Assembly (NCBI GenBank): GCA_902763155.1
Contig: CACWQS010000001.1
Span: 30,878 to 94,877 of the forward strand
DNA: 64,000 bases
Source of the DNA: an uncultured Pseudomonadota bacterium
GTDB taxonomy: Bacteria; Pseudomonadota; Alphaproteobacteria; RF32; CAG-239
Direction of reading: 5' to 3'
The stretch's first letter is position 1. Every line of letters begins with the position of its first letter. Below the pieces are notes generated by a model, which saw nothing but the letters and a program-made list of their open reading frames with translations, searched no databases and had not been told where the DNA came from. The position numbers were made by a program, and so were the translations under genes. Below, piece by piece: positions 37,595-39,012 of this stretch.

Positions 37595-38167
37595 ATGGAA
37601 AAGAAAACCGTAAATTTAGTATTTTTAGCTTTTGTATTTTGTCTGATGAAGAGCTTGCCGGTATTGGCGCTAGATGAGGAAAATATTGAACATTCGTGCG
37701 AGCAAAAAGATGAACGTAATTATTGCGTTGATGCAAATGGTATGCCGCTGAACGGTAAAATTTATACCACATGGCCGGAAAGCGAACAATATAAGACTAT
37801 CATCAACTACAAAAGAGGTTATGCCGATGGGTTGGCAACATATTTCAATAATGAAGGTAAGTTGATGGAACGCGTTTATTATAAAACCGGCATAAAAAAC
37901 GGCATGGATAAAATTTATTATGCCAATCGCACTATTAAAATTTGGGCAAATTATAAGAACGGAAAACTTGATGGTTGGCAAAACTATTTTACGCCGGAGG
38001 GAAAACTTCAAGGGAAGATGTATTACAAAAAAGGTAAATTGACGAATGGTTTTTGTATTGCTTATTCGGATAAAGGAAAGCTAAAAAAGACCTTGAGCAC
38101 CGAGCAAATTGCGCAAAATGAGGAAAATAAGCTGTTTTTGTGTTCGGAAAGCGGAGCAGAGGAATGA
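37595..38167 (+). CDS. Secreted MORN-repeat (YwqK-family-like) protein
   Basis: A signal peptide (MEKKTVNLVFLAFVFCLMKSLPVLA) and repeated Y..G.K.G....YY.NG.L MORN variant-2 units. Its stop overlaps the next gene's ATG (ATGA). Confidence 0.65.
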   Translation: MEKKTVNLVFLAFVFCLMKSLPVLALDEENIEHSCEQKDERNYCVDANGMPLNGKIYTTWPESEQYKTIINYKRGYADGLATYFNNEGKLMERVYYKTGIKNGMDKIYYANRTIKIWANYKNGKLDGWQNYFTPEGKLQGKMYYKKGKLTNGFCIAYSDKGKLKKTLSTEQIAQNEENKLFLCSESGAEE

Positions 38168-39012
38168 CGAGCGGATTGGTGCTTGAAGGTGGAGCGCATC
38201 GGGCGATATATGTAGCCGGAGTGCTTGATGTTTTGTTGGAAAATGGTGTCAGCTTTGATGGAGTAATCGGTGTTTCTGCCGGTGCAATTCACGGTTGCGC
38301 CTTCGTTTCTAAACAGCGAGGAAGGAGCATAGGTTATACTCTGAAATATGCCAATGACCGAAGATATATGAGTTGGTATTCGTGGTTGACGACCGGCAAT
38401 ATGGTGGGCGAGGAGTTTTGTTACCACGAATTACCGGAAAAGTTGTTTCCGTTTAATCATGAAGTCTTTGAAAACTCAAAGACTAAGTTTTATGTAACTT
38501 GTACCAATTTGCAGACAGGACAGGCGGAATATATTTATTGTGATGAATTGAGGCAGAAGATGCCGTATTTACGAGCATCGGCGTCTATGCCTTTCGTATC
38601 AAAGATCAGTGTGATTAACGGTGTTCCGTATTTAGACGGTGGAATTGCCGACAGTATTCCGGTGCGAGCATTTCAGCATTTGGGTTATGATAAATGCGTG
38701 GTGGTACAAACGAGAGCCGCAGGATATAGGAAAAGTAAAAATAAACTTAGTTGGTTGGCAAAAATAGTGTATAGACGATATCCGAAATTTGCCAAGGCAA
38801 TCAGAGAACGGCATATAATGTATAATCGGGAGTTGGCGGATATTGAGCAAATGGAAAAAAATGTCGAAGTAGTTGTTATCCGTCCAAGTAAAAATATTAA
38901 AATCAAACACATGGAAAAGAATGTTAAAGTTTTGCAAGAAGTATATCAACTCGGGCGGACAGATGCACTTAACGCCTTACCGAAAATTCGGGAATTTTTG
39001 AATTTAAAATGA
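38164..39012 (+). CDS. Patatin-like phospholipase
   Basis: An oxyanion motif GGAHRAIYVAGVLDVL (GGxR/K), a GVSAG nucleophile elbow (GxSxG), and a DGG catalytic Asp motif (YLDGGIADSIP). The frame is open from GTG at 38140, but ATG 38164 is coupled to the upstream stop. Confidence 0.8.
   Translation: MTSGLVLEGGAHRAIYVAGVLDVLLENGVSFDGVIGVSAGAIHGCAFVSKQRGRSIGYTLKYANDRRYMSWYSWLTTGNMVGEEFCYHELPEKLFPFNHEVFENSKTKFYVTCTNLQTGQAEYIYCDELRQKMPYLRASASMPFVSKISVINGVPYLDGGIADSIPVRAFQHLGYDKCVVVQTRAAGYRKSKNKLSWLAKIVYRRYPKFAKAIRERHIMYNRELADIEQMEKNVEVVVIRPSKNIKIKHMEKNVKVLQEVYQLGRTDALNALPKIREFLNLK

Follow-up and report, generated by a model that had tools for sequence, protein, structure and literature searches.

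In Bacillus subtilis, the MORN_2 protein YwqK is an immunity protein whose gene follows that of the secreted LXG toxin YwqJ (PMC8321402), and ywqK-vgrG pairs are conserved in type VI secretion system (T6SS) loci of Alphaproteobacteria other than the one studied here (PMC8163844). Among the MORN2 (PF07661) proteins of Fusobacterium, 87% carry signal peptides, and they were proposed to be adhesion or invasion factors (PMC4222103). Patatin-like lipases with described roles include ExoU of Pseudomonas, which is paired with SpcU, and VipD of Legionella; these are multidomain effectors of 530 to 690 amino acids (aa) that carry host-cofactor or membrane-localization domains and have dedicated secretion systems (type III [T3SS] and Dot/Icm, respectively). 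CapV and CapE of the cyclic oligonucleotide-based antiphage signaling system (CBASS) are small cytoplasmic patatin-like lipases that cyclic nucleotides activate and whose genes accompany one for a CD-NTase. In the Tle/Tli pairs of T6SSs, the Tle effectors lack signal peptides and the Tli immunity proteins are periplasmic; Tle1 to Tle4 are alpha/beta-hydrolase lipases, Tle5 is phospholipase D-like, and none is a patatin. Here, we describe a gene pair from an uncultured alphaproteobacterium and compare it with these systems. The pair lies in a 64-kb stretch of DNA (64,000 nucleotides [nt]; GenBank assembly GCA_902763155.1, contig CACWQS010000001.1, positions 30,878 to 94,877), hereafter the window, and consists of a gene for a 190-aa MORN-repeat protein (positions 37595 to 38167 of the window, + strand, from the open reading frame [ORF] listing) and an overlapping gene for a 282-aa YjjU-type patatin-like acyl hydrolase (38164 to 39012, + strand), hereafter the lipase.

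Because the defining features of the YwqJK, Tle/Tli, ExoU/VipD, and CBASS systems were each looked for and not found, the pair is not a member of any of the four. With YwqJ-YwqK it shares a small MORN_2-type repeat protein encoded beside an enzyme. YwqK, however, acts in the cytoplasm, next to a polymorphic toxin, whereas the window MORN protein has a predicted signal peptide and predicted disulfide cysteines and precedes its enzyme, a conserved lipase of housekeeping type that has neither an LXG domain nor any other domain for toxin delivery. The pair resembles Tle/Tli in combining, in tightly linked genes, a lipase without a signal peptide and a small protein for which an exported location is supported, but Tle genes are found near vgrG, hcp, or PAAR genes. 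No gene for VgrG, Hcp, PAAR, or another secretion component was found in the window or among the called genes of annotated related loci, and the window lipase evolves slowly. ExoU and VipD share the patatin fold and the Ser-Asp dyad with the window lipase, which is far smaller than these effectors; searches of the 64-kb window revealed no T3SS, type IV secretion system (T4SS), T6SS, CD-NTase, integrase, or transposase. CapV and CapE are the second-best structural matches to the lipase, but no CD-NTase is encoded near it, and PADLOC returned a marginal phospholipase-effector match for the patatin (E = 0.0044) and none for the MORN protein. Finally, the secreted MORN2 families of Fusobacterium and Helicobacter share with the window protein a gut-associated Gram-negative host, signal peptides, and rapid diversification; unlike these expanded multigene families, which lie near adhesins, the window MORN gene is single copy and fixed 5′ of one lipase gene.

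The pairing itself was followed in 13 genome loci and 80 metagenome patatin loci, and ∼22 distinct paired loci were used for analysis of the gene junction. A MORN gene lies directly 5′ of the patatin gene in 17/17 loci with at least 66% patatin identity and in 0/76 with 58% or less. Among the genome loci, all six from Alphaproteobacteria have the MORN gene directly upstream, and none of the seven from Clostridia, Treponema, and Myxococcales (40 to 51% identity) does; among the metagenome loci, 11/11 at 66 to 77% identity and 0/69 at 52 to 58% identity are paired. The search for adjacent pairs in other genomes that the original prediction had proposed thus finds the pair in ∼22 distinct loci, including every sampled member of the clade, and clearly contradicts the outcome by which that prediction would have been refuted, a pair conserved in no related genome. 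The junction is always a 4-nt (ATGA) or a 1-nt (TAATG or TGATG) overlap. In the window, ATGA at 38164 to 38167 (+ strand) joins the MORN stop codon (TGA, 38165 to 38167) to the patatin start codon (ATG, 38164 to 38166), exactly as the original prediction had read it, a geometry that suggests translational coupling.

The pairing is equally strict when viewed from the MORN side. A single-sequence search with the MORN protein recovered 14 relatives only, and a profile of 18 partners recovered 25 proteins (162 to 190 aa) at 157 to 250 bits, followed by a gap to 104 bits or less; below this gap lie generic MORN_2 proteins of 220 to 425 aa. An overlapping patatin gene is present 3′ of 9/9 members of the subfamily with readable downstream DNA (the window protein, P0004, P0010, P0011, P0012, P0013, P0323, P0324, and P0325; P0331 was left out of this count, as its contig ends 24 nt past the gene), and none was found 3′ of the generic MORN_2 proteins outside the subfamily (P0014, P0334, and P0336). 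No substitute small secreted protein was seen upstream of unpaired patatins in 12 inspected loci. Among the paired loci, the upstream neighbors vary (thyA/folA, Lon, GNAT, malQ, or an uncharacterized 490-aa protein), and so do the downstream neighbors (gpsA, flavodoxin, a PHP-domain gene, a tadA-like/deaminase gene, or ABC exporters); since the flanking genes differ this widely, the pair moves as a unit. Thus, we conclude that the pairing is not due to chance and that the pair is inherited as a unit in every sampled clade member.

By its sequence, the lipase is a YjjU-type Patatin-DUF6363 serine-aspartate acyl hydrolase with no predicted export signal. The Pfam patatin domain (PF01734) covers residues 5 to 169 (nt 38176 to 38670, + strand) with 75.6 bits (gathering cutoff, 27.7; E = 7.7e-21; profile positions 1 to 189 of 191), and DUF6363 (PF19890; 85 bits; E = 3.1e-24) lies C-terminal to it at residues 206 to 280 (nt 38779 to 39003, + strand); the Pfam scan found no domain beyond these two. 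The motifs noted in the original prediction are present, all on the + strand: GGAHR (residues 9 to 13, nt 38188 to 38202) matches the G-G-x-R/K oxyanion hole, GVSAG (residues 36 to 40, nt 38269 to 38283) the G-x-S-x-G nucleophile motif, and DGG (residues 158 to 160, nt 38635 to 38643) the motif D-G-G/A that holds the catalytic Asp. Their key residues (G9, G10, R13, G36, S38, G40, D158, G159, and G160) are invariant in 34 patatin homologs. NCBIfam gave a subthreshold similarity to RssA and a fragmentary match to VpdC, limited to a 64-residue stretch with 21.5 bits against a cutoff of 1000. The closest solved structure by sequence is PlpD (2.6e-10). The AlphaFold2 model (predicted local distance difference test [pLDDT], 81.8; predicted template modeling [pTM] score, 0.86) has the patatin alpha/beta fold; beta-strand 1 begins at residue 3, and because the fold opens directly with this strand, there would be no room for an N-terminal export signal. 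Foldseek ranked PlpD first (4.6e-11), followed by CapV/CapE (1e-9 to 1e-10) and then by plant patatin and iPLA2-beta, with VipD (1.9e-4) and ExoU (4.7e-3) near the bottom of the significant list; the structural matches to the ExoU/VipD class have E values of 1.9e-4 to 1e-2 and template modeling (TM) scores of 0.3 to 0.46. The view of this enzyme as an effector or toxin of the ExoU/VipD class is therefore not supported, given its YjjU architecture, the weak structural matches, the lack of an export signal, and a ratio of nonsynonymous to synonymous substitution rates (dN/dS) of 0.03 to 0.08.

Escherichia coli YjjU (b4377) aligns with the lipase over 272 residues at 26% identity (E = 1e-23) and shares with it the PF01734-PF19890 architecture, a similar size class, and the lack of a signal peptide. 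YjjU differs in being an uncharacterized 357-aa “putative patatin-like phospholipase” whose gene adjoins yjjV and has no MORN gene upstream. The family is large (>7,900 clusters at <1e-10), and the window lipase is much closer to its relatives without a MORN partner in Clostridia, Treponema, and other groups, including human-gut metagenome contigs (40 to 58% identity; L016 to L022 and L035 to L103), than to proteobacterial YjjU (L104 is E. coli yjjU). This distribution hints that the alphaproteobacterial clade may have gained the patatin gene horizontally from gut Firmicutes and that the MORN gene was added afterwards. In loci of the L016 to L022 and L035 to L103 type, the patatin gene often has 5′ of it an ORF with the N terminus MGKTLYLECYSGISGDM..., which we take to be LarC-like. 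By analogy with its family, we infer that the window lipase is retained in the cytoplasm, with (lyso)phospholipids or other acyl esters on the inner side of the membrane as the substrates that it deacylates.

The MORN protein scored below the Pfam threshold for MORN_2 (PF07661; 19 bits; gathering cutoff, 29.6; E = 1.4e-3) and had no match in NCBIfam, although homologs at 42 to 43% identity carry precomputed PF07661 matches. Its AlphaFold2 model (pLDDT, 85.4) is all beta, with twelve strands in hairpins, preceded by a low-confidence N-terminal helix and a disordered stretch. Foldseek matched the model to the SET7/9 N-domain (4.2e-5) and to MORN1 of Toxoplasma, Trypanosoma, and Plasmodium; the family profile also matched SET7/9 weakly by sequence and recovered ∼15,000 MORN_2-type representatives. 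The tandem hairpin fold with the Y-x-x-G-x-x-x-G pattern is present, and the repeat Gly and Tyr residues are invariant. The assignment to MORN thus holds despite the subthreshold Pfam score because of the model fold, the structural matches to MORN1 and SET7/9, and the recovery of MORN_2 proteins by the profile.

As the original prediction had proposed, the protein appears to carry a signal peptide (approximately residues 1 to 26; nt 37595 to 37672, + strand), followed by a mature domain at residues 33 to 166. In 18/18 aligned homologs, a basic N terminus is followed by a hydrophobic core and then by an AXA-type site for cleavage, which in the window protein reads VLA|LDE. All 18 also share four invariant cysteines after the cleavage site (C35, C44, C154, and C183), and none of the 18 aligned partners has a lipobox. 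The mature partners are mostly basic (isoelectric point of 8.2 to 9.6 in 16/17). We infer from these sequence features that the MORN protein is exported by Sec and is a soluble, probably disulfide-bonded protein of the periplasm or cell surface. Enterobacter Tli reportedly has a cytoplasmic isoform made from an internal start; such an isoform is ruled out here, as no internal Met is conserved after the signal peptide. In L024, L025 (both from 2468), L105, and L106 (both from 4001), the signal peptides begin with the Tat-like twin-arginine sequences MSRR(L/S)(F/W)ILS, MYRRFWIIS, or MIRRFLILS, unlike those of the window protein and most other partners, which are of the KK or K type. Co-export of the lipase as a hitchhiker on the twin-arginine translocation (Tat) pathway was considered and rejected as a general mechanism, since the RR motif is confined to this one subclade and the four disulfide cysteines fit Sec/Dsb export better. 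The MORN partners of L026 (∼2240 to 3001) and L027 (∼2285 to 3001) have an extra 60- to 110-aa linker of acidic or Ser/Thr/Glu-rich low-complexity sequence between the signal peptide and the first conserved Cys, which suggests a tethered or surface-exposed form. Further MORN-type genes lie near the pair in two loci: a second small paralog in L014 (2467 to 3021), ended by the contig edge, scores 116 bits against the partner profile, and a gene in L005 (2 to 454, − strand), called as 734 aa and running beyond the locus end, scores 48 bits.

The two genes evolve at very different rates. In pairwise comparisons over 17 paired loci, the MORN proteins are on average 41% identical and the lipases 74%, and dN/dS is 0.11 to 0.36 for MORN and 0.03 to 0.08 for the lipase; both genes are under purifying selection, which is very strong on the lipase. 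The distance matrices of the two proteins correlate (Mantel r = 0.83; 0/2000 permutations reach this value), which argues for shared descent. In the subclade of L028, L030, L031, and L033, the lipases are 99% identical (synonymous divergence [dS], 0.08 to 0.12), and the MORN proteins are 72 to 78% identical (dS, 0.46 to 0.70). Sliding identity profiles of L028 (∼1800 to 3740) against L031 and L033 revealed a ∼1.9-kb block of 95 to 100% identity that spans the 3′ third of the MORN gene, the lipase gene, and an abutting PHP-domain gene, with its left breakpoint inside the MORN gene; the flanks, which include variable glycosyltransferase genes, are unalignable. These patterns indicate that the MORN alleles of this subclade are mosaic or recombinant. 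Because the block of identity starts only in the 3′ third, the 5′ part of the MORN gene belongs to a recombining, strain-variable region; such variability is typical of exposed proteins, and the lipase looks like a core housekeeping gene.

Several signals around the pair are compatible with a two-gene operon. The ORF listing opens the patatin frame at GTG 38140, its first in-frame start; we place the start of the 282-aa protein at ATG 38164 because the 34 homologs align from M1 and have an invariant G4. Shine-Dalgarno-like sequences were read 7 nt 5′ of the MORN ATG (AAGGA, 37582 to 37587, + strand) and, within the 3′ end of the MORN gene, 7 nt 5′ of the patatin ATG (GGAG, 38153 to 38156, + strand). 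A consensus scan of the 153-bp divergent intergenic region upstream of MORN found two overlapping sigma-70-like promoter matches (37534 to 37574, + strand), both weak (9/12 each), and the number of sites was not above that in shuffled sequences (8 versus 5.5 ± 2.5); the promoter assignment is only suggestive. Between the convergent patatin and gpsA genes, a hairpin with a perfect 16-bp stem (39085 to 39126; arms GACTAAATTCGCCGA, 0 mismatches) and a second, 11-bp hairpin (39142 to 39169) lie in a region with a folding z-score of −7.3. The arm sequence of the 16-bp hairpin has no other copy within the window and is thus not a dispersed repeat. Transcription of the two-gene operon likely ends at this hairpin, even though it is not followed by a T-run. 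A consensus scan for terminators missed the hairpin; the two terminator-like calls that it made lie inside the patatin gene and are not above shuffles. An Rfam scan of 37300 to 39300 gave no match. Because the 16-bp-stem hairpin separates patatin from gpsA, the operon in the window appears to be bicistronic. In one subclade, a PHP-domain gene abuts the patatin stop codon with a 1-nt overlap (L028, 2924 to 3751; L031, 2604 to 3431; L033, 3858 to 4685; L108, 5367 to 5984) and would form a three-gene operon; its product has 275 aa (205 aa as called in L108). This gene is absent from the window locus, where gpsA converges on the pair instead.

We favor, at roughly even confidence, the interpretation that the pair forms a bicistronic operon specific to one clade of uncultured Alphaproteobacteria from gut and rumen, that it acts in envelope or lipid turnover with its products in different compartments, and that it is neither a toxin/antitoxin nor an effector/immunity system. 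The operon, topology, and housekeeping parts of this interpretation are much more secure than the lipid-relay part. A single mRNA would yield the MORN protein and the lipase together: ribosomes terminating on the MORN cistron would reinitiate on the lipase cistron or unmask its start, helped by the embedded GGAG. The MORN protein would then be exported by Sec and disulfide bonded in the periplasm or at the cell surface, and the lipase would remain in the cytoplasm as a deacylase of (lyso)phospholipids or related esters. The two products, one on each side of the inner membrane, would serve one process, most plausibly turnover, remodeling, or scavenging of envelope or exogenous lipids, in which the basic, tyrosine-rich MORN domain may bind a lipid, envelope, or host ligand outside the cytoplasm. 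In Trypanosoma, TbMORN1 binds individual phospholipids but not membranes (PMC7725318); this property and the richness of the window in lipid and envelope genes are consistent with a lipid role and no proof of it.

Several points weigh against this interpretation. Overlapping genes cannot be separated by rearrangement without damage, and adjacency by itself therefore makes the functional link look stronger than it is; more telling is that the sampled clade has kept both genes throughout and that no member of the MORN subfamily was found in another setting. The enzymatic activity, the substrate, the localization, and the link between the two proteins are all predictions, and since the predicted compartments differ, direct interaction is not expected and the functional link is vague. 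In many other phyla, members of the lipase family do without a MORN partner. Moreover, the lipid-related neighbors gpsA and fadL are found only in the subclade nearest the window, and they are convergently transcribed.

In the main alternative, which we consider a minority possibility, the two genes are inherited together but have unrelated functions. An exposed MORN gene may have been inserted once between the promoter and a housekeeping patatin gene, with the overlap making later separation costly; its product would be a surface or host-interaction protein like Fusobacterium MORN2 or an orphan defense against foreign enzymes. An apparent single gain (all loci at 66% patatin identity or above are paired and none at 58% or below), a patatin family that functions alone elsewhere, products in different compartments, and a large rate disparity with a recombination breakpoint inside the MORN gene would all be expected from such hitchhiking. 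So would the long acidic or Ser-rich linkers of some partners, which are typical of surface proteins, and Fusobacterium MORN2 proteins likewise mostly bear signal peptides (PMC4222103). However, every locus in the clade still has both genes, with no gap between them, at divergences large enough for synonymous sites to be saturated (dS above 1); the MORN subfamily was never found apart from patatin, and the MORN gene is under purifying selection.

Improbable, in our estimate, is a tighter version of the functional link, in which the conserved lipase would have the exported, fast-evolving MORN protein as its obligate partner across the envelope. This version could take either of two forms: the lipase may leave the cell by an unrecognized route, with the MORN protein as its specificity or immunity component, or the MORN protein may capture lipids in the periplasm and feed host or dietary (lyso)phospholipids to the cytoplasmic deacylase. 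The gene overlap would then fix stoichiometry or bring the mRNA, and with it the nascent lipase, to the membrane as the upstream signal peptide is targeted cotranslationally. If true, either form would be an undescribed two-compartment lipase system specific to gut Alphaproteobacteria.

A T6SS pair of the Tle/Tli type, in which a dedicated secretion machine would deliver the signal-less patatin to the periplasm of competing cells and the producer would be protected by the MORN protein in its own periplasm, appears slightly less probable still. The topology fits, MORN_2/YwqK proteins have toxin-linked precedents, the MORN partner is fast evolving with mosaic alleles, and the pair is strict and tightly coupled. 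Yet the window and the annotated related loci lack secretion genes, and the PADLOC match is marginal. Few genes of the locus are as conserved as the patatin gene, contrary to what an arms race would produce in an effector; near-identical lipases occur in strains with divergent MORN proteins; and the lipase has no N-terminal trafficking domain. Partnerless relatives at 40 to 58% identity occur in Clostridia, which are typically Gram positive, and in other phyla, and both the immunity-first gene order and the core-genome context are atypical. A cytoplasmic toxin-antitoxin or chaperone pair of the YwqJK or ExoU-SpcU kind is very improbable and largely refuted by the sequences: the small protein encoded first and overlapping its enzyme resembles type II toxin-antitoxin operons, and a JGI annotation calls one cluster member “antitoxin component YwqK,” but 18/18 homologs carry the signal peptide and the four invariant cysteines, which locate the MORN protein outside the cytoplasm, there is no LXG or polymorphic-toxin domain and no T3SS or T4SS in the window, ExoU and VipD match the fold distantly, with PlpD and CapV well ahead of them, and the lipase lacks a membrane-localization or Rab-binding domain.

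The proposal that the two genes form a functional pair, for example, a phospholipase with an immunity or chaperone partner, thus survives in its first half, a conserved and coupled gene pair. The second half is not supported, because a MORN protein that is exported cannot act as a cytoplasmic YwqK-type antitoxin or SpcU-type chaperone and because the lipase is of a housekeeping type. No paper on the MORN-patatin pairing was found in the literature searched, in line with the earlier statement that no described system of this kind was known to its author: we found none on DUF6363 and none joining MORN repeats, immunity protein, phospholipase, and effector, and in the papers examined that mention both MORN and patatin in bacteria, the two terms are never linked as a pair. 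Both components come from known families; their obligate, overlapping pairing in one alphaproteobacterial lineage appears, by the literature searched, to be new. The conservation is striking and the two-compartment arrangement curious, with no pointer to a new mechanism yet. YjjU-type patatins and bacterial MORN_2 proteins are widespread and largely uncharacterized, and the pairing offers a genetic handle on both, with one clade, one partner, and controls in partnerless relatives, in an uncultured lineage common in rumen and gut metagenomes. It also cautions that a MORN_2 protein is not always a “YwqK antitoxin” and a patatin not always an ExoU-like toxin; the predicted exported location and the evolutionary rates oppose both annotation habits here. 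A lipid-scavenging or trans-envelope lipase system, if true, would be of moderate interest; at present, the locus is a well-documented conserved operon for which a function is proposed.

The genes of the surrounding window are purely of housekeeping types, with envelope and lipid functions well represented (gpsA, fadL, lpxA, pagP, mlaEF, an aas-like fusion, and fabF). Its G+C content is even, and MORN and patatin are each present in a single copy. The genes adhE, glyA, the aas-like fusion, gltX, parC, recO, kdsA, pagP, recJ, mlaE/F, radA, cvpA, ldh/mdh, folA, and thyA come before a giant ORF of 2,211 aa; the MORN-patatin pair, gpsA, fadL, and a lone T2SSE-type ATPase follow it, and GNAT, M48 peptidase, lpxA, uvrB, lepB, rnc, era, ftsY, fabF, and mltG genes come after the ATPase. 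The giant ORF (30806 to 37441, − strand) is divergent from the MORN gene and without a Pfam match; its product has a very acidic composition, low-complexity stretches rich in Glu, Gln, and Thr, and hydrophobic segments around its center. In L001, a related locus, the genes immediately 5′ of the MORN gene are thyA/folA, and the giant ORF therefore looks like a lineage-specific insertion between thyA (29910 to 30740) and the pair.

The T2SSE/PilT-type ATPase (41845 to 42813, + strand, 322 aa, GTG start) stands alone, with no other secretion or pilus genes near it, and is also found in L004; an adjoining gene (42893 to 43702, − strand) encodes a 269-aa polytopic membrane protein without a Pfam match. 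PagP, a lipid A palmitoyltransferase, is known mainly from Enterobacteria, Bordetella, and Legionella; the window has a homolog (16115 to 16669, − strand; 1.2e-51) that adjoins kdsA and a DUF502 gene. Another lipid-turnover gene (6367 to 8631, − strand) encodes a 754-aa fusion of a PlsC-type acyltransferase and an AMP-binding, acyl-ACP synthetase-like domain, the architecture of the lysophospholipid reacylation enzyme Aas.

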